From IMG/VR virus record IMGVR_UViG_3300007169_000009: a DNA stretch of 64,000 nt. The stretch is one strand, 5' to 3'. The stretch comes from an uncultured virus (IMG/VR IMGVR_UViG_3300007169_000009) (lineage: Duplodnaviria; Heunggongvirae; Uroviricota; Caudoviricetes). The translations under genes were made by a program, and so were the position numbers. The notes beneath the pieces are model-generated. The model was not told where the DNA came from, did no database searches, and saw only the letters and a list, made by a program, of their open reading frames with translations. Of the stretch, positions 13,806 to 54,476 are shown piece after piece. Within the stretch, counting starts at the first letter, position 1. Every line of letters begins with the position of its first letter.

Positions 13806-13831
13806 CCGCCCCTGTTGGGGGTGGCTTTTTT
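13804..13831 (+). terminator. intrinsic terminator
   Basis: AGCCGCCCC-loop-GGGGTGGCT-TTTTT. Confidence 0.75.
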
Positions 13832-13871
13832 CTGCCTAGCTAGACTCCGGGGAGGCAGGAGGCTTTGCGAC

Positions 13872-16800
13872 GTGGCCAGCACACAAGCGACAATTGATCT
13901 TATTGTTCGTGGTTCGGCTGCTGTTAATAGGCTGATTTCTGATGTAGGCCAGCTTCAAGGTGCGGTCCAGCGAATCAATAGCCAGACGCTAGATGTTGCG
14001 CCAGGTGATCTTCGGCGACGCACAAATGATCTGACTTCTGCTATGAATGGCCTAGCCGATAGGGCGAATACCCTTGGCAGGAGAAGAGCGCAAGCGCTTC
14101 GGGAAGAAATTGCTGAAATGGGCAGGCTTGCAACTGCCCAAAGAAATCAGCAAGCGGCGCTAGAGGATGCCGCAAGAGCAGAGCGCGAGCTTTCAAGGCT
14201 GGCGGGCCGAGACGAGTCTCGCTCAAGAAGAACAGACGAATTGCGCAGAAACTTAATTAACGCCACGAGCCAGGCAGAAGCATTTTCAGATGAGATAGAT
14301 TCTGCTGCCACTTCGGCGAGAACCTTGCGTCAGGAAGTTGAGCAAATTAGCCAGGCATATAGAAATGTAGCGACTGCGGCAGAGCCAATAATAAATGCTA
14401 ATCAAGTAGCGGCATCTTCAGATGCGGTAAGAGCGCTTGCGCGTGAGTATAACGCATTTGGAGACTCGCTTCAGCGAGGCGCAAGGGAAACAAGACTTTC
14501 GCGGACGCTTATTCCAGGGCAAATATCAAGTTTTAGGCAGCTTGGAAGTGAAATAGAGCAAGTTGACGCTTCTTTGCAAAATTTGCGAGCAGAACTTTCA
14601 AGACTTGGTGCGCAGGAAACAATTGTAAGAATTTCTGCGCCAAGAGCCATTCAAGAAGGAGAGCTTCTGCTGGGGCCGGTGGATCTGCAGGCTCAGGTTC
14701 AAGCTCAGCAAGAAAATACTGCAAGAGAGCAAAGAAATCAACGTCGAACCGAAATTGCAGAGCAAATAAGGCAGCAAGAGAACCAATTAGCAAATCTTGA
14801 AAGACAAGCGGCTAGAGTCGGTCGGCAGACCGTTGCACGTCAAGATGAATTGACCAGATTAACAGAAGGCAGAACGCCACAGCAGAACCAGCCTGCGGGT
14901 CTTTCGGTTTCGCTAAATCAAATTCAAGCGCAAGCCGAAGGGCTTGCCCTGGTGGCGAATAATTCAGCAATTGCCAGCAACGCCTTTAATCAGTTTACAG
15001 TTGCAGCCGAAATAGCTTCAATCAAGCTCGCAAGATCCCAGCAGGCCACATTTGCGGCTCTTGCTGGTGGCTTCTCAGAAGCAATGGCGCCTCCGCCCGG
15101 TCTTGGTGGAAGCGTGCCCGGTGGCAGCGCGATTGGTGGCGCAAGGGCGCAAGTAGCGGAACTGATCAATATGATTCCCGAGCTGACTAGAAGCGAGGCG
15201 GCTCTAGGGGCTCATATCAGTCTTCTTACGAAGGTTCAGCAGCTGCTCCCGTTCGTAAGTCTTGAATATAGGGCTGTCGAGGATGCCATCAGGGGGCTGA
15301 ATGAGGAATTGCAGGATGCTGCTGCAATGAAGAACGCCCCTGCTACGAGACTCGGCAGCCTTGAGCAATACAGGCAGCAAGAAGCGTTTAGATCAGGCGT
15401 AGAGAGAACGCAGCAGCGTAGACAAAAAGAATCCAACAGTATTCTCGATAAATATTCTAAAATTTATTCAGATATTTACGACGCCCAAATTGAACAAGTT
15501 GATAAAACTCGTCTTCTGGAAAACTCAAGCCGAGTTCTTGAGGCTCTTGACGAAGATCGCCTTGAAAGCGCCAAGGCGATAACTCGCGAACTGCAAGATC
15601 AGCTCAATGCCGCCAAAGGCAGGAGCAAAGCGGAGAGGGAGGCTGCAAGGCGCGGCGGCCCGTCTATGCCGGTGACTGGCCGCTTGGTGACAGGGGGCGC
15701 GGTTCCGGGTTCTCCGGCCGCGCAGGGGCGGCGCGGCCCCGCCCTGCCAGTTTCCGGCCGCTTGATTGGTGGCGGGTTTGCGCCTGGTTCGCCGGAGGCG
15801 AAGCGCCAGGAGGCCATGAACCAGGCGCGTCTCAAAAACATTATTCGCTCCGGCGAAATAGCAGAGAAAAATTTAATCAAACTGCAGGCACAGGATCCAA
15901 GCGAACTTCTTAACAAAGAGCTTGCGAATCTTCAGGGTCAGCTAGTCGAAGCGCAAAAGACGCTGAACAAAGCTAAGCAAGAAGGGGTCAGCATTAGGAA
16001 GGTTGATGTTGACCTTCTTGGCTACGAGATAGCCGCCACTAGCAAGCTAGCGCAGCTTGAGAAAAAAGACGCGACCGCCAAAAAAGCAAAAGACGGCCCA
16101 TCTGTAGCGATTGATAATCTCGTAGAGCAGCGCAAGTATCAAAGGCAAATCAACGACGCATACAAAGAGCAAGAAGACCTTATCGACAAAATCAACAAAG
16201 CCGGACTATCTCAAAATCAGGTTGAAAAGCTTTCTATTGGCATTGGCCAAGCCCGAGAGGCACTGCTTGGCAATCAGCTTGAGGAATCGCAGCAAATAAC
16301 TCGCGAAGTAGAAAAACAGCTGCAACTTGAGAAAGAAATTGAAAGTAATAGGCAAAAGCAACGCGCAAAAGGCGTCAACTGGACCACCTTTCTTGCTCGT
16401 GGCGAAGAAGCTATTGCTGAAAACCGAGGCAATGCCGCAGCTGCTTCTAAGAAAGAAATGGAAGATGCTGCCAATGCTCGCAAAAATCAGTTGACAAAGC
16501 TGGAAACGCAGCTCAATAACTATACGATTCTTGAAGGCAAGGGCGTTAAGTTTATGGAGGAAAAAGCGGAGCTGGCCGAGCTTGTTAGCGGGCTCTCCAA
16601 TAATCAGATAGCCCTAACCAAGCAAGAAACAGAAGCCATTGACGAGCTAATTAAAAAATTCAGGCTTTACTCTGATCTTAGGGTGAGCCAAGCCAAGACA
16701 GCTGGAACATACAAGAGCGGTCCATCCGGCAAGACACAAGCAGAAATAAACGAAGACAGAAGGGAAAGGGTTCTCAAGAGCGCAAGAACTCAAGAAGAAA

Positions 16801-19800
16801 GGCTTCTCAAGCTTGGCCGCAAGGGAGTTGATGTTGCCGACCTGAGAAAAGGCCTTGAAGAGCAAATCCTGAACATCCAGAAGCTTCAAGGTAGCGCTAC
16901 CGCTGACAGCGTGCGCGAAGCGGCTGAAGCGCTAATGGTGTATAGGAGGGCCATTGATGATCTCGGCAATAGCCTCGGCAAGGGTTCCAAGTCAGGCCCT
17001 GGCCTTGAGCAAGCGCTGCAAAAGCTCAGGGAGGCTCGCGGCTCAAGAGAAGCCTTCCTTGCTGGCGCCTCTCCGGCAGTGGCTATTGACAAGATTGTAA
17101 GAGAATTCAACTCCGGCGGGGAAAGTGCCGATGATGCCGGCAAGAACATTGCCGAAACTTTTGCAAATAGCCTTGAAGCCAGCACGCCAGCTGCCGCAGC
17201 TGCTGCGAAGAAGATGGCAGAGGGGTCTACTGACGCAATAAACAAGGAATTTGGAATCAATAGCCCGTCGCGGTTCATGATTGAACTTGTTAGAAATCTT
17301 GTAACGACTTATGTTGATCAGTTAAGAGAAGCAACTCCAACAATTCAGGAGGCGGCGAGAAAGGCTTTTTCAATTGACGAAAAAACCCTTAAAGGATTTA
17401 GTGGAAGGGTGATAGACGAAAAAACGAGCCAAGGCCTGCTGGATGCCGGCGCAAAGGCCGGCGCCGCCCTGCTAAGCGAAGGCTCTGGAAAAAAAGTGTC
17501 AGCAGAGGAAATGGCAGGCTATATTGCACAAAAGGGAACAATACTTAACCCAGCAAAATTACAGGAATTTCTTGGAGAAAAGTTTTTTAAGGCAGCGGAG
17601 GGCCAGCTTTCTGTCGGAAATGTTGGGACAGAGCTTAAGGTAGTCCAAGATATTTACAAACAGTTTTATGGAATAGGCAGGGAAGCCGGAGAGGCCGTCT
17701 TTAGCGCACAAGAAATTGAACTGGCTATCAAAAATTTAACAAGTGGCCTTGATATTATTGCGACTCTAGTGCAGGCAAGTGCCGATTTAACGAAAAAATT
17801 TGGATCAAGCAAGGCTGGAAAGGGAATGCTTGTTCCTCTTGGCGAAACTGATCCAAGCGTAATGGCGGGGCAGGCCAAGGCTTTTGGCGGGGCTGGATTC
17901 GCTGGAATGTCAGAGGCTGAATGGAGTAATTTGTTTACGCGACTTGGCGGCGTACCGGATTTCAATAAACTGTTTACTCAGCAAGAGTTCTATAAAATTA
18001 AAAATCAAAAAGCAGACCAAGAGCTGCAAGACAGATTTAAGTCTATTTTTGACGCAGAGACTACATACACTACTGGCTCACGCGCAAAAGCCCCAAGACT
18101 GGTAGACATTCGCCAGCCAAATATCTTTTCAGCGTTTGTTGAGCAAGCCAAGGCTGCCGTCTCTGCTGCTATTCCAAAAACAGCGCAAGAGCAAATTCCA
18201 GCTGCCTATGGCACGAGCCCAGAAAGGATGGCGAGGCTGTATGGGAATGCTCGTGGCCAAGGTGCGGGTCGATTTGGAATTTCAGAAGAGCAATGGCTGG
18301 CCGGCTTCAAGAAAATTGGCATGGTGCCAGATTTTGAAAAAATGTTTGGCAAAGAGCAATGGAGCCTTGTTGAACAGGGCAATGACATACCAGAAATAGA
18401 AAACAAGATTAAATCAATAATCCTCGGCGCCGCGTCAAAGGCTGCCAAGGAGATTATTGCAGGCTCGTCTTCTCTCACTACAATTCCAGGCCAGGCACAA
18501 ATTGCTGGAGCCGGGGAAATAGTCGCGGAGGACGATAAGCAAAGGCGGCGAATCGAAGAGGCATATCGACGCTCTGCCGAAAGACAGGCCGCGATCATGG
18601 CAGAAGACACAGCAATGCGGATTGCTGGAAAAAGCCTTGTGCCCGCTCCAGCGGCTCAACCCATACCAGAAGTTCAACCAGCTCAGGCAGCACAACAAAT
18701 TCAAGAAAAGACAGCCATTGGCGCAGAAGTTAAAAAAACAATTGATTCCGTCTTTACGGATATTGGCATAGCCGCAAAAAATGGCGTCAAGAAAATACAG
18801 GAATCAAAAGTCGGCCAAGCAATTGACTCGATTTCAAGTAACATAGGAACAGCCGCCGATAAAGCCAGCCAAAAGATAAAAAAAACAGAGGCAGGCAAGG
18901 CTTTCGACTTCGTTGCAGATAAGACCAAAAAGGGCGCCGATGCCTTCCTTGCCAAAATAAAAGGAACAAAGGCCGAAAAAGCCTTCGATTTCTTGTTCGC
19001 TCAAATTGATCGAGCAATCGACAAGGCCCAGAGCGCGGCGAGCGGCATTGGCGGCGGCTTCGGCGCTGGTGGCGGCACCCGTCCCCCCTCTGGTGGCGGC
19101 CCTGGTGGCCCCGGCGGCCCTGGCGGCCAGAAAGACCCGGAGGAGTTTGCCCGGAGGCTTGACGAGGCAACGAAGAAGGGGGCAGAGGCGCTGCTGGGCC
19201 TGGAGGAGCTGAGGGATCCCACGAAAGCATCTATCAATGAGATAGAAGCCCTTTCTGCCGTATTGAAAGAATTTAGGGCAGTTCTTGATCCAACCGCGAA
19301 AGGCTTTGATCGCCTTGACGACCAGCTTCGCGAGACAATTGCAAAAATTGATCGTGAAGGGCAGGTAAGGGCTCCTGACGCGGGCTTCTTGACGAGATTC
19401 ACGAGAGATCCGCGCAAGGCAAATGCCATCAGCGAGGGATTGATTGGTGGCGCGTTCCCGCTGCTGTTTGGCCAGGGACTCGGGGCATCGGTTGGCGGCG
19501 GCCTTGGCGGTTTTGCTGGTGGTTTTGCTGGTGGCGGCCTTGGTTTTGGCCTGTCCCTGATTGGCACTGCTCTTGGCACTGCATTTGATACTGCTGTTCA
19601 AGGCGCCAAGGAGCTTGGTGCCGCTCTTCAGAAACCAGTAGAAAACTTTGACAAACTTGCTGAAAAATCGTTCTTCTCTTCCAGGGGGCAAGAAGAGCTG
19701 ATTAAAAGAACAATTCAATCTGGCAACGCATCATTCGCTTCTGCCCTGATTCAACAAGAGGCAATTAAAAAAGTCGGCGTTAATGGTGTCAAAAATTTGA

Positions 19801-22382
19801 AATATTTGGAAACTCAGTCCGACAAGCTGGGCAGATCATTTGCAGAAGTTGGCGTGGGAATTCAGGCATTTATCGCTGGCCCACTCGGATCTCTGCTTGA
19901 CGCACTTAACGTATATGTTCTTGAACCAGCTGTCGTTGCAAATAGACTAAAGGCAGTTAGGGGAGGGCTTAGCTCTGAGCAGCAGAAAATCCTCGACAGG
20001 GAAATTGCCAGAGCCGGCGGTCTTGCGGAAAGTTCAAGGCTGCCATCGGAAAAAGTGCCGGCAGGACTTTTTGATAATGAGCTAAATGTTTTTATTGACA
20101 CAATATCCAGGATTAAGCCAGAAAAAATTAAGGAAATTATTGATAGATTTGAGTCTGCAACGCTGGCAAACATAAAGCCTACCCCAAAAGAGGCTATTGA
20201 AACGCAAATAAATATCAAAAATAAGGAGCTTGAGCTTAGAGATATTGGCAAAAATGTTATAGATCAGGCCCGCAACGCGGCACGCGAACAGCAGGATCTT
20301 GATAAGCAAAGATTTGAAATTATTGAGTCCTACGAAGAGAATATTGGACAGATTCGCAAGCAAATTGAAAATGAAGTTTCTCAGCGTCGCTTTGCAATTC
20401 TTGAAAAAGAGAACTCACTGCTCGAACTTCAGGCTGAAAACAGAATTAAAGAGTTTGAGCGATTCACAAAAACCTCAATTGAGAAAGCCGGAGCCGGAAA
20501 GCCAAAAGAAATAGAAGATATTGCGAAAAAAACAGCAGAAATAGTGTCAACATTCCTGATTGAGCAACTTTCTACCGAAGAAAAAGCAGCAAAAATAAAG
20601 CGTGACGCAGCGCTAGAAGCGAAAAAACTTGACTTTGAGGCGCTAAATTTCAAGATAGAAGTTGAAAAACAAGTTTCAAAACTTAATATTGACACGGCAA
20701 AGCAGATCAGACAAATTAACGAGCAAGCACAAAGAAGAAACGAAGAATATAGCAGCAATAAATTCAAATTAGAACAAAAAATTGCGGAACTTAAGCTTGC
20801 TGCAGTTAAAATAGACATAAATAGGGATATTGCAGCACTCAAGGAGCTTTTGAAAACGGCTAAACAGGGAGATAAGTTGTATTTTAAGCAGCAGCTTGAT
20901 TTGCAATACATACAGCAAAAAATCATATCAGAAGGCATTGCCGAAATAAAAAATCTTAAGCCGCCTGCAAATTTGACGACAATTGCCCCGGTCGGTGGCG
21001 GAACTATTTCAACCGGAAGTATTGACAGCTTGGTTAAGACCCAGCGCGATCAGATTGCCGGGCAAACTGCCGAAATGCTGAGATCAGTTAATTTTGCCTA
21101 TGCAGACTCTCAGGAAGCCCTTGCCTCGGGAATTAGTAAAATTTCGGCAGAAATTCTTGCTCCGTTGGCGGATCTTGGAGTTGCCATACCACTGGACAAC
21201 AAAGAAGCTCTGCCAGTTTCAAATAAAATTACAGAAAATGAGCAGCGGCGAGCCAGGTATTCACAGCTAATTAACCAGGGCTACAAGGAAAGTGTTGCAA
21301 ATAAAATAATTGAGCTTGAATTGGCAGGAAAACTTGCGACCGCTCAATACGATGCAGCAATTCAACAGCTAAGAAGCCAAAAATACTATGACGAAGCTCT
21401 TAAAACTCAGAGAGCAATTCTCAACAGTCGAATCGAGGCATTGCAAGTTGAAAAAAGAATTCCCGGAATCACAGAGAAAAGACGAAGAGAAATTGATGGA
21501 AGCATCGCTGGTATAACTGGATACTCGGCCGAGCTAGGCACTGTAATTAGGGCGAGCCTGGACAGACAGGCTGCATTACTTGAGGGAGCAAAAGCTGGAA
21601 TACCTGGTGCAATTCAGTCCTTCACCCCTCAGCTTATTCAAAAAGAGCGTAGAAATGAAATTGAAGATTTTGTCAATCAAGGAATTTCTTCCTTGAATGA
21701 TCTTGAGGCGACGGCCATCAGGGTATCGCAAGGAATCGGAAACGCTGTTGGAGATTCCTTCGGGCAGCTTGTGACCGGACTTCTTGATGGCACGGCTACC
21801 GGCCAAGAGGTATTTGCAGGCTTCCTAAAGAGCGTTGCAGAAATTCTGGCAAAAGAGGCCGTAAACATCATTGCCACATACACCGCAATTGGAATCGCCA
21901 GGATCTTTGCTGGACTTAGCGGCGGTGGCAGCAAGTTTTTTGATGCCAGTGCAACGCCTATCCAAAGCACCAACTGGGGCGGCGGTGGAAGTGGATTATT
22001 TGGAAATCTGGGAATTAACTGGAGCCAGGCGCCATCAATTGGCGGTGTCCAAGGATTCGCCAATGGTGCCGCGTTCACCAATTCAATTGTCTCCTCGCCA
22101 ACCCTCTTTAAGTTTGCCGATGGCGCCTCAATGGAAACTGGGCTCATGGGCGAGGCAGGCCCAGAGGCGATCATGCCCCTTACCAGGGGGCCTGGTGGTC
22201 GGCTCGGGGTTGATGCGAGTGGCGCTGGCGGAGGCAGTGTCATGGTGAATGTCTCTGTCGATGCCAGCGGGTCTAAGGTTCAGGGCGACGAGGCGCAGGG
22301 CGCCCAGCTCGGCCGCGTCATTGGAGCGGCAGTGCAGCAAGAGCTGATCAGGCAAAAACGACCCGGAGGACTCCTTGCGTAA
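13872..22382 (+). CDS. tape measure protein (~2,836 aa)
   Basis: Long helical protein after chaperones; GINSPSR motif, Gly-rich hydrophobic segment, C-terminal GLMGEAGPEAIMPL...KRPGGLL; in-frame GTG start. Confidence 0.92.
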   Translation: MASTQATIDLIVRGSAAVNRLISDVGQLQGAVQRINSQTLDVAPGDLRRRTNDLTSAMNGLADRANTLGRRRAQALREEIAEMGRLATAQRNQQAALEDAARAERELSRLAGRDESRSRRTDELRRNLINATSQAEAFSDEIDSAATSARTLRQEVEQISQAYRNVATAAEPIINANQVAASSDAVRALAREYNAFGDSLQRGARETRLSRTLIPGQISSFRQLGSEIEQVDASLQNLRAELSRLGAQETIVRISAPRAIQEGELLLGPVDLQAQVQAQQENTAREQRNQRRTEIAEQIRQQENQLANLERQAARVGRQTVARQDELTRLTEGRTPQQNQPAGLSVSLNQIQAQAEGLALVANNSAIASNAFNQFTVAAEIASIKLARSQQATFAALAGGFSEAMAPPPGLGGSVPGGSAIGGARAQVAELINMIPELTRSEAALGAHISLLTKVQQLLPFVSLEYRAVEDAIRGLNEELQDAAAMKNAPATRLGSLEQYRQQEAFRSGVERTQQRRQKESNSILDKYSKIYSDIYDAQIEQVDKTRLLENSSRVLEALDEDRLESAKAITRELQDQLNAAKGRSKAEREAARRGGPSMPVTGRLVTGGAVPGSPAAQGRRGPALPVSGRLIGGGFAPGSPEAKRQEAMNQARLKNIIRSGEIAEKNLIKLQAQDPSELLNKELANLQGQLVEAQKTLNKAKQEGVSIRKVDVDLLGYEIAATSKLAQLEKKDATAKKAKDGPSVAIDNLVEQRKYQRQINDAYKEQEDLIDKINKAGLSQNQVEKLSIGIGQAREALLGNQLEESQQITREVEKQLQLEKEIESNRQKQRAKGVNWTTFLARGEEAIAENRGNAAAASKKEMEDAANARKNQLTKLETQLNNYTILEGKGVKFMEEKAELAELVSGLSNNQIALTKQETEAIDELIKKFRLYSDLRVSQAKTAGTYKSGPSGKTQAEINEDRRERVLKSARTQEERLLKLGRKGVDVADLRKGLEEQILNIQKLQGSATADSVREAAEALMVYRRAIDDLGNSLGKGSKSGPGLEQALQKLREARGSREAFLAGASPAVAIDKIVREFNSGGESADDAGKNIAETFANSLEASTPAAAAAAKKMAEGSTDAINKEFGINSPSRFMIELVRNLVTTYVDQLREATPTIQEAARKAFSIDEKTLKGFSGRVIDEKTSQGLLDAGAKAGAALLSEGSGKKVSAEEMAGYIAQKGTILNPAKLQEFLGEKFFKAAEGQLSVGNVGTELKVVQDIYKQFYGIGREAGEAVFSAQEIELAIKNLTSGLDIIATLVQASADLTKKFGSSKAGKGMLVPLGETDPSVMAGQAKAFGGAGFAGMSEAEWSNLFTRLGGVPDFNKLFTQQEFYKIKNQKADQELQDRFKSIFDAETTYTTGSRAKAPRLVDIRQPNIFSAFVEQAKAAVSAAIPKTAQEQIPAAYGTSPERMARLYGNARGQGAGRFGISEEQWLAGFKKIGMVPDFEKMFGKEQWSLVEQGNDIPEIENKIKSIILGAASKAAKEIIAGSSSLTTIPGQAQIAGAGEIVAEDDKQRRRIEEAYRRSAERQAAIMAEDTAMRIAGKSLVPAPAAQPIPEVQPAQAAQQIQEKTAIGAEVKKTIDSVFTDIGIAAKNGVKKIQESKVGQAIDSISSNIGTAADKASQKIKKTEAGKAFDFVADKTKKGADAFLAKIKGTKAEKAFDFLFAQIDRAIDKAQSAASGIGGGFGAGGGTRPPSGGGPGGPGGPGGQKDPEEFARRLDEATKKGAEALLGLEELRDPTKASINEIEALSAVLKEFRAVLDPTAKGFDRLDDQLRETIAKIDREGQVRAPDAGFLTRFTRDPRKANAISEGLIGGAFPLLFGQGLGASVGGGLGGFAGGFAGGGLGFGLSLIGTALGTAFDTAVQGAKELGAALQKPVENFDKLAEKSFFSSRGQEELIKRTIQSGNASFASALIQQEAIKKVGVNGVKNLKYLETQSDKLGRSFAEVGVGIQAFIAGPLGSLLDALNVYVLEPAVVANRLKAVRGGLSSEQQKILDREIARAGGLAESSRLPSEKVPAGLFDNELNVFIDTISRIKPEKIKEIIDRFESATLANIKPTPKEAIETQINIKNKELELRDIGKNVIDQARNAAREQQDLDKQRFEIIESYEENIGQIRKQIENEVSQRRFAILEKENSLLELQAENRIKEFERFTKTSIEKAGAGKPKEIEDIAKKTAEIVSTFLIEQLSTEEKAAKIKRDAALEAKKLDFEALNFKIEVEKQVSKLNIDTAKQIRQINEQAQRRNEEYSSNKFKLEQKIAELKLAAVKIDINRDIAALKELLKTAKQGDKLYFKQQLDLQYIQQKIISEGIAEIKNLKPPANLTTIAPVGGGTISTGSIDSLVKTQRDQIAGQTAEMLRSVNFAYADSQEALASGISKISAEILAPLADLGVAIPLDNKEALPVSNKITENEQRRARYSQLINQGYKESVANKIIELELAGKLATAQYDAAIQQLRSQKYYDEALKTQRAILNSRIEALQVEKRIPGITEKRRREIDGSIAGITGYSAELGTVIRASLDRQAALLEGAKAGIPGAIQSFTPQLIQKERRNEIEDFVNQGISSLNDLEATAIRVSQGIGNAVGDSFGQLVTGLLDGTATGQEVFAGFLKSVAEILAKEAVNIIATYTAIGIARIFAGLSGGGSKFFDASATPIQSTNWGGGGSGLFGNLGINWSQAPSIGGVQGFANGAAFTNSIVSSPTLFKFADGASMETGLMGEAGPEAIMPLTRGPGGRLGVDASGAGGGSVMVNVSVDASGSKVQGDEAQGAQLGRVIGAAVQQELIRQKRPGGLLA

Positions 22383-34199: not shown

Positions 34200-35087
34200 T
34201 TAACAAGCGATTCCAGGCCTGCGCGAAAGCATTAGTGAGCACTTTGCCAGGCTATTTTTTTCCATTGCTCTAAGGCGCTCTTTCGAGATTCCGGTTTTTT
34301 GAGATAGCGCTCGCCAGGTGACTGGCGGATTTTGCTGCCTCGCAAGAACAACATACCTTGCTTTATCGTCAAGATATGTTTCGATAGCCATCATCGCCAT
34401 TTCTATGTTTATTTTTACATCGAGTTCATCCAGCGTATTTTGATTGCTGCTGTCAGAAATCATGTCAATAATAAAAGAGTTTTCGTAACGACCGCCGACA
34501 GGTTTATCTAGGCTTGCCGATATTGTTGGAACATTTGCGATTGCCTTGATTTCGTCAGTTGATATTGAAAGCTTTTTGGAGAGTTCTTGAATAGTTGGCT
34601 CGCAGCCAATTTCTTTTGATAAATCTTCTTTGGCTCTTTTAATTTTATAGATTAAATCGGAGACGTTTACCGGAAGACGTATTGGAGCATCGCTAGACTG
34701 AAGAGATCGCTGAATTGATTGCCGAATCCACCAGTAAGCGTAGGTGCTCATTGCATAGCCTCGCTTTGGATCGAATTTTTCTACCGCTCTGACCAGGCCG
34801 AGATTCCCTTCTTGAATCAGATCCATAAGATCCAGTGTCTTGCAGTGTCTAACGTATTTTTTGGCAATATTTACGACAAGCCTGAGGTTGCAGTTAATAA
34901 ACTTATCTTTTGCTCTTTTACCAATTCGCGCAATAACGCGCTCCTCTTTTGTGTATTCCGATTCGTCTTTATCTTTAATTGCCAGCCATCGCTGAATTTG
35001 GGTTCCAAGGGAAATTTCTTGAGCTTTTGTTAGAAGCGGGTATTTCCCGATTTCATTGAGGTAGCTCTGGATCGCGTCGCGTGACAT
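34200..35087 (-). CDS. RNA polymerase sigma70-family factor (group-2-like)
   Basis: Region 1.2 YLNEIGKYPLLT; region 2 NLRLVV.IAKKY, DLIQEGNLGL.RAVEKFD..RGY..STYAYWWIRQ; region 3 EPT; no region 1.1. Confidence 0.95.
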   Translation of the reverse strand: MSRDAIQSYLNEIGKYPLLTKAQEISLGTQIQRWLAIKDKDESEYTKEERVIARIGKRAKDKFINCNLRLVVNIAKKYVRHCKTLDLMDLIQEGNLGLVRAVEKFDPKRGYAMSTYAYWWIRQSIQRSLQSSDAPIRLPVNVSDLIYKIKRAKEDLSKEIGCEPTIQELSKKLSISTDEIKAIANVPTISASLDKPVGGRYENSFIIDMISDSSNQNTLDELDVKINIEMAMMAIETYLDDKARYVVLARQQNPPVTWRALSQKTGISKERLRAMEKNSLAKCSLMLSRRPGIAC

Positions 35088-35284: not shown

Positions 35285-36199
35285 TTATTTTTTTGGCATA
35301 AAAACATTGGCAACATATTTCATTTTTTTTGCTATTTCTTGACATTTTTGCCTGATTTCCTGCTCTGTCAATTTATTTGCAGCAGCTGCATCTTTTACCG
35401 ATAAAGGAGACATACCAATGCCGTAGCGTTGTTTTATTAGAAGCTTTTCATCGCCTGGCAAGGAGTCGAGGATTCTTAGCAAAACATCAAGCCTCGGATT
35501 TTCATCAAAATGATCGCAAAGCCCTTGATTGACCGATAAGACATCGGCCAATTCAACGCTGTCCTCATGCCTTCTTATTCCAGAATCAAGTGAGATAACA
35601 CTTGCGTTTAGCAATATGACTTTTCTTATTCTTTCTGGATCTTCTTTCATTTTTTTTGCTATCTGATGGATCGTTGGCTCTCTTTTTAATTCAAATATCA
35701 GTGCCTCTCTTGCTTCTTTTATTTGTTTTGCTGTTTTTTGGACTGTTGCTGGAACTTTTATCGTTTTTTCCTGATGCTCGCTTGCTCTAGCAATGCTTTG
35801 CCTTATCCACCAATAGGCATAGGTGCTGAATTTGTACCCCCTGCTTGGCTCAAACTTTTCCGCCGCTCTTGCTAATCCAATTGCGCCTTCTTGAATCATG
35901 TCTTGAATTGTCATGTGCAACTGAGAGGTTTTTATTTTTTTCGCAACTGCTACAACTAGCCTCATATTGGCTGAAATTATTCTATCTCTTGCTTTCAGCC
36001 CTGTCTTAATTATTCTTTTTGCCTCTTGGTCAAGACTTTCTGAAATTTGAGAAAAGTTTTCTTTTGAAACTTGCTCATCTATCCCACGCTCTCTCAATAC
36101 TTTTAGCATTTCTTGAACTCTGTTCCCAAGCATGATCTCTTCGTCGCATGTCAGCATTGGGACACGCGCTATATCTGCCAGCTGGTGTTCAAGGCTCAT
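35285..36199 (-). CDS. second RNA polymerase sigma70-family factor (group-2-like)
   Basis: IARVPMLT.DEE; NMRLVV.VAKK; DMIQEG.IGL.RAAEKFEP.RGYKFSTYAYWWIRQ; REPT. Confidence 0.95.
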   Translation of the reverse strand: MSLEHQLADIARVPMLTCDEEIMLGNRVQEMLKVLRERGIDEQVSKENFSQISESLDQEAKRIIKTGLKARDRIISANMRLVVAVAKKIKTSQLHMTIQDMIQEGAIGLARAAEKFEPSRGYKFSTYAYWWIRQSIARASEHQEKTIKVPATVQKTAKQIKEAREALIFELKREPTIHQIAKKMKEDPERIRKVILLNASVISLDSGIRRHEDSVELADVLSVNQGLCDHFDENPRLDVLLRILDSLPGDEKLLIKQRYGIGMSPLSVKDAAAANKLTEQEIRQKCQEIAKKMKYVANVFMPKK

Positions 36200-36307
36200 G
36201 GCTGTGCGTCGAGGCGGCGGCGGAGTCGCCCGCCCTGGCGGGCAAGGCCGCTTCACCTTGAAGCACGGAATACATGCCGCCTCGGCTTGTGCTAGCCATC
36301 CAGAACC

Positions 36308-50018: not shown

Positions 50019-50209
50019 CGGAGCTGATCGACCGGATAAAGCGCGACGGCGGCACCATCGAGGTGCTGCAAGATGAACGCGGGATGACCTATCACCGCGT
50101 CTGTGCGCATGGCGTCTGTCGATCGTGCGAGGATCGCTGGCAGGCTGAAATGTACCTTGATCAAATGCTACGCTCCACGTCCTCTACTCCATCTTCTTAT
50201 GGTGCTTGA
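50015..50209 (+). CDS. hypothetical protein
   Basis: DGG.IE.L...Y.RVC..G.CR..ED.WQA. Confidence 0.65.
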   Translation: MTELIDRIKRDGGTIEVLQDERGMTYHRVCAHGVCRSCEDRWQAEMYLDQMLRSTSSTPSSYGA

Positions 50210-50924
50210 TTCTCGTTTCCGGGTTGCGTTGATCGCCGCTACACCTAATCCGCAACAGTGCATCTACGCCGCGATGCACCAGGACTACGCCGAGACGTTT
50301 GTAGTTTATGAGCAGTTGCCGGATGAAACCGTATGCGGCCATACGATCGTCCGCAAGTTGCTTGCTGGTGAACGTGGCCACTATGGCCCACTGGAGCACC
50401 CGCAGATCACGTTCAATGTCGGCTGGTTTCCGCATAGCGTGATGCAACAGGCGCGGACGCATCGCGTTGGTGTAAGTTTTGATGTTCAAAGTATGCGTTA
50501 CACAGGAGACAGAATCTGCAAAGCAGCCGCTGGGGAGCTAGAGCTGGAGGAGGTCTTTTACCTGCGTCCCGCCGGATACTATTCTGATAGAAATGGCAAA
50601 AAATATCAATACTCAGAGCATCAAAGAAGCAAGGATCTTGATTTATGTCAAGAAGCGGCCAGCAGATACTCTGATCTGATTCTTGGCGGCTTTGCGGAAG
50701 AGCACGCTAGGGGGATTTTGCCCTTTGACTATCGCCAGCACTTTGTAGTGAGCTTTTCGCTGCGAGCATTCTTGCATTTTATGGATTTACGTGCCAAGCT
50801 TGATGCTCAAGAAGAAATCCGCGTCTTGTGCGATTTGATGTGGCCCCATGCGCAGGCCTGGGTGCCGGAAATCGCCGCATGGTATGAGAAAAACCGCCTG
50901 CGCAAAGCGCGTCTTGCGCCGTGA
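50199..50924 (+). CDS. thyX: FAD-dependent thymidylate synthase
   Basis: GHYGPLEH, QQARTHRVGVSFDVQSMRY, EHARGILP, HFMDLR...AQ.EIR. Confidence 0.95.
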   Translation: MVLDSRFRVALIAATPNPQQCIYAAMHQDYAETFVVYEQLPDETVCGHTIVRKLLAGERGHYGPLEHPQITFNVGWFPHSVMQQARTHRVGVSFDVQSMRYTGDRICKAAAGELELEEVFYLRPAGYYSDRNGKKYQYSEHQRSKDLDLCQEAASRYSDLILGGFAEEHARGILPFDYRQHFVVSFSLRAFLHFMDLRAKLDAQEEIRVLCDLMWPHAQAWVPEIAAWYEKNRLRKARLAP

Positions 50925-51724
50925 GCGGAATGGCAATCTGTCCTAATTGCAGCTCTGATGCAACCAAAGTAATTGAGTCCACCCAGCTGCATGATGGGGG
51001 CCGCCGTCGTCGCCATTTATGCCATAGCTGCGGCTTTAGATGGTCAACTTGGGCTGGCGCCCCTCCGCGCAGAGGCCGCCTCCCAAATTCAAGACCCGGC
51101 AGAAAAAGCAAGCCTCCGCTCACGGAAGATCAGGTAAGGCTGATTCTCCTGTCTCCTCTTAGCTCGTCAAAGCTTGCCCGCCAGCTGAATAGGCCGGTTG
51201 AAACTGTTGCTGGCGTTCGCCGTGGACAGTTTCACAAAAATACACTGCCAGAGCTGCCGAGGCGCAAGCCTGAGCCTCGGCGGACCTATCAAAAAGCATT
51301 GCCAGAAGGCCTCCCATCGTGTAGGCTGTGTAAGCACTGGAGTAACAGCAAGTGTGGCATGGGTTTCCCGGACCCAATTTACGAAGGGCCTGGATTCGCA
51401 GCTGAATGCAGCGTCTATGCGCCATTGGCCGCTCGGCCCGCCAATCAGCCAACGCAAAAAAATCATGGCGAGGCGGCGAAAGCGCCTGAGCCCCTGATTC
51501 TTGCGCTTTACAGGAATCACTATGTATCGCCCGATGATTGGTGGTTCAGCTGCCCAAGGGCGGAAGATGCCACCAGCGATGAATGCTCCTGCGGGGCGGG
51601 CGCTCACAATGCAAGGCTCGATGCCCTGGTGGCCGCCCTTGGCAGCTCGGAACCAGAGCTGGCAAAGCTCAATGCTGTAATCGAAAAATTCCTCAAACCA
51701 GTAAAAGAAAATGGCACTAGATGA
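50921..51724 (+). CDS. NrdR-like zinc-ribbon regulator with further Cys-rich regions
   Basis: CPNC...KVIES...RRRR..C..CG.RWST; central HTH-like segment. Confidence 0.65.
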   Translation: MSGMAICPNCSSDATKVIESTQLHDGGRRRRHLCHSCGFRWSTWAGAPPRRGRLPNSRPGRKSKPPLTEDQVRLILLSPLSSSKLARQLNRPVETVAGVRRGQFHKNTLPELPRRKPEPRRTYQKALPEGLPSCRLCKHWSNSKCGMGFPDPIYEGPGFAAECSVYAPLAARPANQPTQKNHGEAAKAPEPLILALYRNHYVSPDDWWFSCPRAEDATSDECSCGAGAHNARLDALVAALGSSEPELAKLNAVIEKFLKPVKENGTR

Positions 51725-51941
51725 TGACTTTCGTTTTGGCAGATTTGTGGGCATTGCCATTACAATTTGTTTTTGGCTTTTCTTGCTTATCAGCTTGCGC
51801 AAGAAGCTGATTAAGTGGTTGCTTGATGCAGCCATGCAGGCGGCTGGCGCAAGCCAGTCCACAGTGGCGAGGATGCCCGCATTGGCGGCTCAAATTGTCG
51901 GTGAGCACGCCGAGTTGCTGCAATGGAGCCAGGCAAAATGA
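51711..51941 (+). CDS. hypothetical membrane protein
   Basis: N-terminal hydrophobic segment. Confidence 0.45.
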   Translation: MALDDDFRFGRFVGIAITICFWLFLLISLRKKLIKWLLDAAMQAAGASQSTVARMPALAAQIVGEHAELLQWSQAK

Positions 51942-52246
51942 TGGAAAAACATCGCCACAGGCTTTGGCTCAACATCATGGAAGACCTTGGGCCGCCAGAG
52001 GGGTGCATTGTTCCAGCCTGGCTTGTGTGTGTCCATGCGATGCTTTTTCCTTTGCAGGGATTGCGCTGGATCATTGATAGACACATGGGCTATGATCCAC
52101 TTCGCATGGTGTGGACAATACACGGAATTGACTATTCTGATCGCATCTTCCACCGCCTTGCTATTGCTGATGGAGTATTGTATCGGTTTGTTACTGTGAA
52201 CAAGGTTTTGACCGTTGAAATTATTGCACAGCCGCCAAAGGAGTAA
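51938..52246 (+). CDS. hypothetical protein
   Basis: Operon-coupled ORF. Confidence 0.55.
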   Translation: MMEKHRHRLWLNIMEDLGPPEGCIVPAWLVCVHAMLFPLQGLRWIIDRHMGYDPLRMVWTIHGIDYSDRIFHRLAIADGVLYRFVTVNKVLTVEIIAQPPKE

Positions 52247-52248
52247 AA

Positions 52249-52566
52249 ATGAAGATAACGAGTGGATTGTTTAGTTTTTCTAGGGCAGAAGTTGTTCGCG
52301 CCAGCCTGCTGCTGAGACCTACAATTGGCAGCTCCATTTGGATGACGCTTAACTCACATAGGCTTTTGATGTTTTTGCCTTTGAATTGGAGAGTCTTAAA
52401 TAGGGAGGTCTTACTGCGTCTTGGCTATCAATTCACTGTCATTGGCATTGAATGGGAGTCAATTCAACAGGTTGAAATTGCTTTGCTTTATTTTCAAAGG
52501 CTGGGTCTAGCAGAAATTTGGGAAGACACATCAAATGGCAAGATCATGGTTCGGCGGAAATCCTAG
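52249..52566 (+). CDS. hypothetical protein
   Basis: AGGAG RBS. Confidence 0.55.
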   Translation: MKITSGLFSFSRAEVVRASLLLRPTIGSSIWMTLNSHRLLMFLPLNWRVLNREVLLRLGYQFTVIGIEWESIQQVEIALLYFQRLGLAEIWEDTSNGKIMVRRKS

Positions 52567-52570
52567 TCCA

Positions 52571-53005
52571 ATGCCAAATCAAATTTATTCTTCAACTGGA
52601 AGAAAAATTCCATCTAAAATGCAGTGCCCTAAGTGCAGATTTTTATTTTCAAAAGTTATTTCAACCAATGAAGACGAATCGGGAGTAACGCTCCGCAAGC
52701 GTCGCTGCAAACAATGTGAGCACGTATTTTTTACAGCTCAAGAGCCAGAATACATGGTAAAAGGCGAAAACATTGCGTGGAGGAATGGCAAACTGTCTTT
52801 GCGCGATAATTCTGCCCCACTCACAGGTCTTGGGATTTCCACCCAGCCTTGTCACGCTTTAATGAGGGCTGGTTACAAAACTATCAATCAAGTTGTAGGA
52901 TTAAGCGATGATCAAATACTTGCTATTAGAGGGGTTGGCGTGAAGTTCTTGCTTGAAATTCGCACTGCTATTCGTAGGTGGAAGGACCGCCCGGAAGACT
53001 TTTAG
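52571..53005 (+). CDS. NrdR-like Zn ribbon fused to RNAP alpha-CTD-like domain
   Basis: CPKC...KVIST...RKRRC..C...F.T plus LGISTQPCHALMRAGYKTINQVVGLSDDQILAIRGVGVKFLLEI. Confidence 0.7.
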   Translation: MPNQIYSSTGRKIPSKMQCPKCRFLFSKVISTNEDESGVTLRKRRCKQCEHVFFTAQEPEYMVKGENIAWRNGKLSLRDNSAPLTGLGISTQPCHALMRAGYKTINQVVGLSDDQILAIRGVGVKFLLEIRTAIRRWKDRPEDF

Positions 53006-53267
53006 CTTCAGGGTTAAACTCTCTATCTTCAAGACTTGTCGTCAATAGCTTATGCTTGCTTAGTTTCATTTTCCATTGAGCCGCCCAAATTCTTAAAGTT
53101 TCGTGGTCAAGCACTTTCCTGGAGTCATCATTTATGCAGGCAAATTTTTTTTCAAGCAATGAAGAGAGGTTTTCAAACTGCTCCGCACAGCTTTGCGCCA
53201 CCGATAGCGCTGTTTCGTAGGCAGCCTGGATTTCCAATTTTTCTGTTTCGCTTAGCGGAAGTTTCAT
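52968..53267 (-). CDS. hypothetical protein
   Basis: MKLPLSETEK... helical ORF on minus strand. Confidence 0.45.
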   Translation of the reverse strand: MKLPLSETEKLEIQAAYETALSVAQSCAEQFENLSSLLEKKFACINDDSRKVLDHETLRIWAAQWKMKLSKHKLLTTSLEDREFNPEAKSLPGGPSTYE

Positions 53268-53286
53268 TGATCTTGCGAATTGTGAT

Positions 53287-53952
53287 TTGAGCCCAAGCGG
53301 GATAAGACTTCTCCAGGTGGAGCAGGGCCGATTGATTGCCACCAGTCCAGTCACTCAGGGTTCCCAGGATTGGGGGATGCCCATCCTGAACAACGGTGAA
53401 ACGGTAGGAGGTCGGTTCCATGGTGGTACTCTATACCTTGACGGTGGATCCTGCAAGGTGCCAAGAACGGTAAAGGGCAAGACAAGGTTCCCATTCCGAA
53501 TTACGATCGTTCCGCCTGGGAAGCCGGAGCGCCGGTCGCCGTGGATTGGCACTCACCGATGGAAGCATCGAGCCATTTATACCATGAAGATGAAGCTTTC
53601 AATTCAAATAGAAAAAGCTTTAACCAGGGCAGGCTGGAAATGGTTTAAGTTCTATTCTGTTCGTGGATATGGGGTGCCTGGACGGCTTGAGTTTATATGT
53701 CCATACTCTTCAATGGTTGCAAAAACAATTTGCCAGCAAGAAGCAATCTATGTCAGAAGGTACTGGGCTCTCTGCGCGGAAAAATCTCAGGAAGTGTTGG
53801 ATTGGCTTTGTCAGCTAGATCCAGCCAGGTACTCTGCCCAACTTCACAGCTACCTGCTTAGAACAATTATTATTTCGTACAACGCAAGAGAAATTGACAA
53901 ATACGAGCAATCAAATCCGTTTCAGCAGGCAAAGCCATGGCAAGAGCTGTAA
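53287..53952 (+). CDS. hypothetical protein (start uncertain, probably later)
   Basis: ORF overlapping next gene. Confidence 0.5.
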   Translation: MSPSGIRLLQVEQGRLIATSPVTQGSQDWGMPILNNGETVGGRFHGGTLYLDGGSCKVPRTVKGKTRFPFRITIVPPGKPERRSPWIGTHRWKHRAIYTMKMKLSIQIEKALTRAGWKWFKFYSVRGYGVPGRLEFICPYSSMVAKTICQQEAIYVRRYWALCAEKSQEVLDWLCQLDPARYSAQLHSYLLRTIIISYNAREIDKYEQSNPFQQAKPWQEL

Positions 53953-54476
53953 AATATCACGAAATGTTCACGAAGGAGGGATGTCCAGTTTTTTCTTCAA
54001 CACAAACCGAGAACCGAATAGCGCTTTGCAAAAAAGCTCTGTGTCCAGATAGGTCGCTAATTATTCGATTTAACGATTGCTATGAGTCTGACTCTGAAGC
54101 CGCAAGGTATCGCAAGCTCCGCTTTCTTTCTGGAGAATATTTTGATGAAAATGCAAAAAGCCTGAGGGAGTTGGGCTGGGGAGGTCGCTACAAAACTCCA
54201 AAGTATGCGATAGAGGGTGGCTTCTACCCATTTGTAAGGTGTATGCAAAAAACTAGGCCCGTTGACGCTGGGATTATCTGGGTTGGAACTAGGCATGAGT
54301 ATCCTAGGATTTGGCTTAATAATCTTGTGGCTTCCTGGCTTTGTCCTTATACAAAAGCTGGATACGTGATGACCGAGCCGTTTGAGCCGATTGATCGCGT
54401 GCTGGCAAACTGGCATCGCCTGTCTGATAGGCGCCTGTATCCGGCGCTAATGCTGCCCCCGGTCCCAGACGCTTAA
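53937..54476 (+). CDS. hypothetical protein
   Basis: 179-aa ORF. Confidence 0.6.
   Translation: MARAVKYHEMFTKEGCPVFSSTQTENRIALCKKALCPDRSLIIRFNDCYESDSEAARYRKLRFLSGEYFDENAKSLRELGWGGRYKTPKYAIEGGFYPFVRCMQKTRPVDAGIIWVGTRHEYPRIWLNNLVASWLCPYTKAGYVMTEPFEPIDRVLANWHRLSDRRLYPALMLPPVPDA

Follow-up and report, generated by a model that had tools for sequence, protein, structure and literature searches.

The gene and its zinc ribbon

The window analyzed in this study is a stretch of 64,000 nucleotides from an uncultured virus (IMG/VR record IMGVR_UViG_3300007169_000009), and the gene in question lies at 52571..53005 on the + strand, stop codon included. It codes for a protein of 144 amino acids (aa), referred to as P0001, in which an NrdR-type zinc ribbon is followed by a domain that resembles the RNA polymerase (RNAP) alpha subunit's C-terminal domain (alpha-CTD) but lacks its DNA-contacting arginine. 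The combination is uncharacterized; both domain families are already known.

The gene is real and under purifying selection. Its start codon, the Met at 52571, is common to 5 homologues (62–96% identical), and the upstream open reading frame (ORF) stops 4 bases before it. A longer reading from the ATG at 52535 was not supported, as the same homologues begin at the Met of 52571; at the homologous locus L006 the frame opens just 7 codons upstream of the start. Against the 83%-identical L006 homologue, dN/dS was 0.16 overall, and the values of 0.14 for the N-half and 0.20 for the C-half place both halves under purifying selection. Contigs from RNA libraries covered only 51900–52456 (X16) and 52876–53269 (X17, 90–95% alike), leaving the middle of the gene uncovered; contigs of this kind do not show transcription, and their coverage was counted as evidence in neither direction.

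The four-Cys ribbon occupies residues 17–55 (52619..52735), with C19, C22, C46 and C49 and a basic R42-K43-R44-R45 run. It was identified by Pfam, where these residues matched Zn_ribbon_NrdR (PF22811) at 29.5 bits (cut-off 27.2), by alignment to NrdR, and by Foldseek, with the N-domain of an AlphaFold2 model matching NrdR chains at E 6e-4. The model was built from an 18-row alignment (pLDDT 83.2, pTM 0.48) and consists of a beta-rich N-half (strands 27–77) and five helices (84–139). A profile of six family members matched NrdR 7p37_A in a PDB search (E 6.6e-4), and a profile of stand-alone ribbons matched Streptomyces coelicolor NrdR (E 7.9e-9). The original prediction had spoken of a second NrdR-like ribbon, and rightly so: the first belongs to a paralogue at 50921..51724 (PF22811, 36.5 bits).

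Positions of P0001 were compared with those of S. coelicolor NrdR. According to the available part of PMC9110341, paired NrdR ribbons contact DNA via R12, R26–29 and R37, with D15 and R17 reading bases. R12 corresponds to K28 and R26–R29 to R42-K43-R44-R45, so that the basic run is kept; R37 is replaced by V52, D15 by S31 and R17 by N33. The NrdR model TIGR00244 gave 24.7 bits on P0001 (cut-off 124.65), over residues 17–61 only, and the Pfam scan found no ATP-cone. Ribbon halves carried a net charge of +3 to +9 in all 20 sequences counted (P0001 ribbon: +8), and C-halves of −2 to +3. Tethering of P0001 to DNA is plausible on sequence grounds, because the ribbon is basic and the NrdR basic motif is kept.

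The ribbon runs into a family-specific extension of residues 53–77 (52727..52801), delimited by alignments, the dimer model described below and the AlphaFold2 model, with three short strands and the invariant motif T55-x-Q57-E58-P59-E60-Y61. A profile search of 1.84 billion representatives returned 1286 matches at E ≤ 0.001. Among the best 150 of these, only two were full-length look-alikes, the window's own cluster (P0004) and the singleton P0010 (148 aa), and 12 short proteins (71–130 aa) aligned to residues 5–82 only. All 14 aligned ribbon sequences passed PF22811, and the invariant columns of the 18- and 14-sequence alignments were C-P-x-C, R42, C-x-x-C, T55, Q57, P59, E60 and Y61. A ribbon hidden Markov model (HMM) built here scored 84–119 bits on L002, L005–L020 and L023. 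Judged from these alignments, the P0001 ribbon is a member of an unnamed phage family of stand-alone ribbons with the T-x-Q-E-P-E-Y motif, found at 19 metagenomic or viral loci besides the window. The freshwater Synechococcus podovirus S-SRP02 (L023) also has such a ribbon, its gene (21783–21995) falling in an unannotated gap between p031 and p032. The S-SRP02 protein annotated as 'NrdR' (p028, 199 aa) has the ribbon, with no ATP-cone match in Pfam, and in BFVD many small phage proteins bear the automatic name 'NrdR-like N-terminal domain'.

The ribbon is predicted to dimerize through the T-x-Q-E-P-E-Y strand. In a model of two copies of residues 1–84 with Zn, the symmetric interface comprised residues 53–65, which coincide with the invariant family motif; the score was 0.51, against 0.01 for the best of 3 controls. 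Runs shared at least 75% of contacts, and the partner pLDDT was at least 71. Of 30 proteins solved as one-chain pairs, 20 attained the mark applied, compared with 1 of 23 whose solved form is a single chain; these counts are only rough because our own alignment was used and Zn was included. As NrdR ribbon pairs are already solved, the pass may reflect likeness to NrdR and not independent evidence.

The homology to the NrdR ribbon might suggest a role in nucleotide supply, in which the ribbon would act on the NrdR circuit, by dominant-negative pairing with the host NrdR ribbon or on related operators, to give more deoxynucleotides, with the C-terminal head as an accessory. NrdR tetramers need ribbon-ribbon pairing (PMC9110341, available part), and genes of the family adjoin thyX, MazG, DNA polymerase and dCTP deaminase genes. 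We nevertheless consider such a role very improbable: P0001 has neither the base-reading pair D15 and R17 nor an ATP-cone, mixed pairing with NrdR finds no support in the data presented here, and the alpha-CTD-like module would be left unexplained.

The helical head and its missing arginine

A short linker of residues 78–83 (52802..52819), drawn from the AlphaFold2 secondary structure and a block of lower pLDDT at 71–80, leads into the alpha-CTD-like five-helix domain of residues 84–139 (52820..52987), delimited by Pfam, profile search, Foldseek, VIA-align and alignments. Residues 79–133 matched RNA_pol_A_CTD (PF03118) at 30.1 bits (Pfam cut-off 23.8), and no other helix-hairpin-helix (HhH) family was found on P0001 in Pfam-A at E ≤ 1. 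Among relatives, PF03118 gave 24.5 bits on P0010 and 29.6 bits on the second ORF (ORF2) of L007; the module of L015 had no Pfam match and that of L025 matched HHH_5 only. The six-member family profile had solved alpha-CTDs as its top PDB matches (B. subtilis 1z3e_B, E 4.5e-6). Foldseek superposed the C-domain on 7vpd_S, 1lb2_B, 3n4m_B and 1z3e_B with a root-mean-square deviation (rmsd) of 1.0–1.2 Å over 56–59 residues. VIA-align, an aligner independent of Foldseek, ranked the alpha-CTD of B. subtilis (Z 10.2, rmsd 1.8 Å over 63 residues) and the alpha subunit of E. coli (Z 9.3, 1.3 Å over 61) at the top, followed by RAD51-family N-domains (Z 9.2, 1.4 Å over 58; Z 8.7, 3.4 Å over 64), AF1548 (Z 8.7, 1.9 Å over 61) and SAM domains (Z about 7). 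Small PF03118 proteins labelled Bacteroidota were the top matches in the ESM Atlas, but their score of 0.77 was below a meaningful level.

The original prediction, a zinc ribbon fused to an alpha-CTD-like domain, was thus borne out by PF22811 and PF03118 above their cut-offs and by the fold match; the HMM comparison with RNA_pol_A_CTD and the structural superposition (rmsd 1.0–1.8 Å) that it had proposed both came out in its favor. The resemblance is to alpha-CTD specifically and not just to a generic HhH domain; a generic HhH domain without transcription partners was the case that it had named as its refutation.

Residues 245–329 of E. coli rpoA (L004) were then aligned to the phage family. 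Q92 (codon 52844–52846) stands at the R265 position, in agreement with the earlier remark that Q replaces the UP-element-binding Arg. The fused proteins have Q here in 5 cases and otherwise G (P0006) or A (P0010), non-basic in 7/7, and in the separate modules, read by eye, the residue is G for L007, D for L015 and Q for L025. C269 is A96 in P0001, N268 is H95 (H in 5/7) and S299 is F126 (F or Y in 6/7). G296 is invariant (G123), K298 is kept in 5/7 (K125), and the core positions L260 and L270 are kept. Across the family the K298 position also holds V, S, M or D, and the hairpin, G121-V122-G123 in P0001, also reads K-I-G, R-I-G or L-L-G.

For the related non-phage domains, 257 were taken from 128 proteins, and domains below 25 bits were dropped. 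Their R265 column held R in 218 (85%), H in 12 and K in 9, the N268 column N in 184, and the G296 column G in 240. What distinguishes the phage family is thus the lost arginine, along with a conserved W137, whose column is a gap in 220 of these related domains, and the family-specific Y102.

The modules ranked just under alpha-CTD by VIA-align, RAD51-family N-domains and AF1548, are DNA-binding HhH modules, and both halves of P0001 might accordingly be thought to bind DNA. The protein would then be architectural or replication-associated, combining the ribbon with a non-specific HhH clamp and making no transcription contact. The G-V-G hairpin and K125 are consistent with this, as are the DNA-metabolism surroundings of the family: thyX and MazG in the window, DNA polymerase A in L002 and L015, and dCTP deaminase and helicase in L025. 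Against it, Pfam assigns RNA_pol_A_CTD and no generic HhH family, the arginine kept by most related domains is missing from every phage member, neither K298 nor the G-x-G hairpin is a conserved feature of the family, and the C-halves are near neutral in charge. A DNA clamp is therefore unlikely in our judgment; were the head just another one, P0001 would be an ordinary small phage DNA-binding protein.

The surfaces by which alpha-CTD makes its contacts were compared as the 265, 261 and 287 determinants. None of the three is preserved in P0001. The 265 determinant lacks R265, N268, C269 and S299, with G296 and K298 kept; D258/D259/E261 are the non-acidic T85/G86/G88; T285–L289 read S-D-D-Q-I and residues 310–320 are absent, the comparison for the latter two being with E. 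coli alpha only. As defined in the available part of PMC1874639, the 265 determinant binds DNA, the 261 determinant contacts sigma region 4 and the 287 determinant contacts CAP.

The further proposal of the original prediction, a mimic of the host alpha subunit, was not supported as it stood. A profile of the phage domains scored only 6.5 bits on E. coli RpoA vs. 45–67 bits per domain on repeats in long non-RpoA proteins, and in the PDB profile search cyanobacterial RNAP alpha chains scored under B. subtilis (17.7–19.7 vs. 29.9 bits), one of them being Synechococcus by its entry title and a second presumably cyanobacterial. The E. coli patches for sigma region 4 and CAP are likewise not kept. 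Recent capture from a host rpoA was rejected as an origin, given that similarity to RpoA CTDs is low and that the cyanobacterial chains are less similar than the B. subtilis one.

Modification or blockage of alpha-CTD or sigma region 4 is a known means by which phages take over transcription in the host; T4 ADP-ribosylates R265, and gp67 of phage G1 reportedly blocks alpha-CTD-dependent promoters. The binding partner of gp67 is the host sigma subunit (PMC3694059, available part). With attacks of phages on alpha-CTD function known, P0001 could be seen as a decoy, its alpha-CTD-like heads soaking up a factor that docks on the host alpha-CTD and shutting activator- or UP-dependent host promoters, with the ribbon serving for dimerization or stability. 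The alpha-CTD fold is present, and a fold kept without the DNA arginine is the expected look of a non-DNA-binding decoy. A decoy nevertheless appears improbable, as the E. coli patches for sigma region 4 and CAP are lost, similarity to RpoA CTDs is low and falls further for the cyanobacterial chains, and the conserved basic face of the ribbon would be superfluous in a mere dimerizer.

Related architectures and a proposed mode of action

At the domain level P0001 is a member of PF03118 and PF22811, yet it is neither an RpoA nor an NrdR, since the defining features of both were looked for and found missing. With the alpha-CTD of RpoA it shares PF03118 above the gathering score, the compact helical fold, G296 and the L260/L270 core. 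It differs in lacking R265, the acidic 261 patch, residues 310–320 and the alpha N-terminal domain, no family of which was among its Pfam matches (the N-half being the zinc ribbon), and in gaining W137 and Y102. With NrdR it shares the four-Cys ribbon with basic R-K-R-R before the second Cys pair and, as predicted, ribbon pairing; it differs in lacking the ATP-cone, D15, R17 and R37, and in adding the T-x-Q-E-P-E-Y extension and another C-terminal domain.

The closest relatives of the phage C-domain, with the single-domain scores of 45–67 bits given above, are held by bacterial proteins of 264–1822 aa that combine 2–10 repeats with sigma-70 region 4. These proteins differ from P0001 in having no zinc ribbon and in keeping Arg at the R265 position in 218/257 domains. 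Among the best 20 proteins by single-domain score, Sigma70_r4 was found in 17, HARE-HTH in 9 and RAMA in 1; in an earlier set of 15 repeat proteins Sigma70_r4 was found in 4. In P0118, P0038, P0044, P0068 and others, 1–7 alpha-CTD-like repeats are followed by sigma-70 region 4, often with HARE-HTH, and one repeat protein is a 'hypothetical protein' from an Anaerolineales metagenome-assembled genome. The architecture is recurrent and apparently undescribed, and it unites in a single chain the two modules with which the holoenzyme reads promoters.

A phage protein of similar build is gp57 of Mycobacterium phage Mithril (L026:2210–2659), which is likewise small, annotated as hypothetical, encoded in an early/replication region and provided with a C-terminal PF03118 domain (26.3 bits; 36% identity to P0001 over 52 residues). 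It differs in its N-half, which lacks Cys pairs and so is no zinc ribbon, is without a Pfam match and looks winged-helix-like by eye only, and in keeping Arg at the R265 position (by eye). A similar gene is present in phage Zenteno07, and a weak match was seen in Thermus phage Riverbug.

P2 Ogr is, in the available part of PMC3152322, a small phage zinc-binding protein that binds inverted repeats upstream of promoters and needs contact with alpha. The stand-alone ribbons of the P0001 family could act like P2 Ogr and P4 Delta; P0001 differs from these in having the alpha-CTD-type domain inside the phage protein itself. Ogr_Delta (PF04606) was not among the Pfam matches of P0001 at E ≤ 1, and the long ribbon protein of S-SRP02 had a sub-threshold match to it (19.4 bits). 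By analogy, P0001 probably works most like the Ogr-type small phage activators, or as a tethered effector, without being of the Ogr family. Literature searches, in which subscription journals were outside coverage, found no paper on the architecture of P0001, in line with the earlier remark that it is uncharacterized, nor one on a phage alpha-CTD homologue, on a phage bringing its own alpha-CTD-type module, or on the repeat-plus-sigma-region-4 proteins.

Several arrangements of ribbon and alpha-CTD-like module were seen. The window, L005 and L006 have a fusion of the two. In L007 the ribbon is a 90-aa ORF, and the overlapping ORF2, with a helical N-extension and the alpha-CTD-like domain, has its ATG within the last codons of the ribbon gene; an assembly frameshift was thought less likely here, as ORF2 has its own ATG overlapping the last codons of ORF1 (single 1-kb contig). 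L015 has a 105-aa alpha-CTD-like protein about 630 nt upstream of the ribbon gene, in a DNA-polymerase-A context, found at E 7.8e-7 by a profile built without L015. In L025 a stand-alone 103-aa alpha-CTD-like protein has a dCTP-deaminase-like gene and a helicase for neighbors, and the 6.5 kb examined contain no ribbon. In all, the module was present at 4/19 non-self ribbon loci (L005, L006, L007, L015), and its absence at the others means little because most are contigs of 1–4 kb.

Within a pattern scan of 185,579 bacterial species genomes, which gave 8 pattern matches with none confirmed, the ribbon/alpha-CTD-like family seems confined to viruses and metagenomes. A word-based search starting from P0010 gave back P0010 itself only, scans of viral contigs only the window's own record, L002 and L025, and PHROGs only weak matches (phrog_10675, E 0.003; phrog_1305 'DNA binding protein', E 0.009). 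Homologues are tagged in databases with both Pfam domains and named 'hypothetical protein'.

P0001 probably acts in phage control of transcription, a role for which context is provided by the two cyanobacterial-type sigma-70 genes of the window phage, the Sigma70_r4 in 17 of the 20 proteins with the closest domains, Mithril gp57 and the precedent of P2 Ogr. Our preferred reading, held tentatively and at somewhat less than even confidence, is that a DNA-bound ribbon dimer with its own specificity presents two alpha-CTD-derived heads that act via protein contacts. The domains, their fold, the replaced residues, the selection and the module arrangements are established here and the dimer is predicted; its DNA binding, its role in transcription and the partner of the head are what we infer. 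P0001 would be a dimeric nucleic-acid-binding phage regulator in which the ribbons pair via the invariant T-x-Q-E-P-E-Y strand, and the ribbon dimer would contact DNA by its conserved basic face, with a specificity other than for NrdR boxes. Each subunit would bear, on a linker of 6–8 residues, an alpha-CTD-derived head without the minor-groove arginine, and the heads would serve as protein contacts to the transcription machinery, be it host RNAP, a sigma factor or another factor. By our own analogy, a dimerizing module with a short linker and two CTD-type heads parallels the RNAP alpha dimer.

Several observations weigh against this reading. A hunt for operators over 16 intergenic gaps (rough gene calls), in which 9-mers present in at least 3 gaps and recurring palindromes (arms 6–7, spacer 0–8) were sought, gave three trivial words and no recurring palindrome, which leaves us without a DNA target to propose. 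The head does not conserve the 261 and 287 patches of E. coli. Generic HhH domains contact the DNA backbone, and the head could still touch it because the G-V-G hairpin and K125 remain. The pTM of 0.48 of the AlphaFold2 model says nothing on the relative placement of the domains. The gene lies among nucleotide-metabolism and replication genes and not beside the sigma genes, and tblastn of P0001 gave no match in S-CBS1, S-CBS3 and KBS-S-2A, cyanosiphoviruses with related sigma factors.

A wider form of the proposal, which we regard as doubtful, is that freshwater cyanophages use a two-module system (fused, translationally coupled or adjacent) placing surrogate alpha-CTDs on DNA: the ribbon dimer would bind a site of phage or host, and its two heads, having lost binding to UP-type DNA, would capture a transcription component. 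The surrogate alpha-CTDs could recruit RNAP to phage promoters, perhaps with the phage's own sigma factors, or alternatively host promoters needing alpha-CTD contacts might be starved; if true, phages would be taking over their hosts in a way hitherto undescribed. Should the head bind a component of the transcription machinery, P0001 would be a small, tractable handle on the steering of cyanobacterial RNAP during infection, and alpha-CTD-like domains outside RpoA would have their first known function, including those of the repeat-plus-sigma-region-4 and mycobacteriophage proteins. The fused, split and neighboring forms make the pairing of ribbon and head testable by simple binding assays.

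Phage context and neighboring genes

The window belongs to a freshwater cyanophage of siphovirus type, with terminase, portal, major head protein, an 8.6-kb tape-measure gene and tail protein J on the + strand, together with DnaB, single-stranded DNA-binding protein (SSB), resolvase, MazG and ThyX. The tape-measure ORF (13815–22382, +, 2855 aa) is matched by tape-measure families over its last ~600 residues only (from ~2235), with the best match at 2439–2854. Two adjacent sigma-70 genes, at 34200–35087 (−) and 35285–36256 (−), scored best on the cyanobacterial RpoD model and are placed between the tail module and the replication module. For the first of these, the nearest phage relatives were in the Synechococcus siphoviruses S-CBS3, KBS-S-2A and S-CBS1 (35–44% identity). 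An identical copy of the P0001 gene was found in a viral record that contains 68% of the 31-letter words sampled from the window, and the stretch was found (at least 0.68 of sampled words) in DNA runs of 6 studies labelled freshwater, estuary, aquaculture, aquatic or outdoor metagenome.

The P0001 gene stands in a tight + strand run of thyX, the paralogous ribbon protein, two small conserved ORFs and the P0001 gene itself, followed by a convergent ORF, and gene order around the P0001 homologue of L006 is identical. The paralogue (50921..51724, +, 267 aa) starts within the stop of thyX (50103–50924); it scored 29.3 bits on our own ribbon HMM and has a different, Cys-rich C-terminal part. This segment reads C-x2-C-x-W ... 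G-F-P ... F-A-x-E/D-C, and its Cys motif is also present in L002:3664–4149, where it forms a separate ORF beside a stand-alone ribbon. Judged on this sequence pattern, the ribbon family seems to pair with interchangeable partner modules.

The convergent ORF (52968..53354, −) overlaps the last 38 bases of the P0001 gene with its 3' end and had no Pfam family match. It is kept as an ORF in L006 (3645–4031) and, as a much more distant counterpart, in L007 (727–1005), with an identical tail-to-tail overlap. G+C content was 0.43–0.45 over the P0001 gene and its neighbors (52000–54000) vs. 0.52–0.56 in thyX and the paralogue. L006 carries an extra ORF of 359 aa between the paralogue and the block holding the P0001 homologue, which marks 52000–54000 as a variable region.

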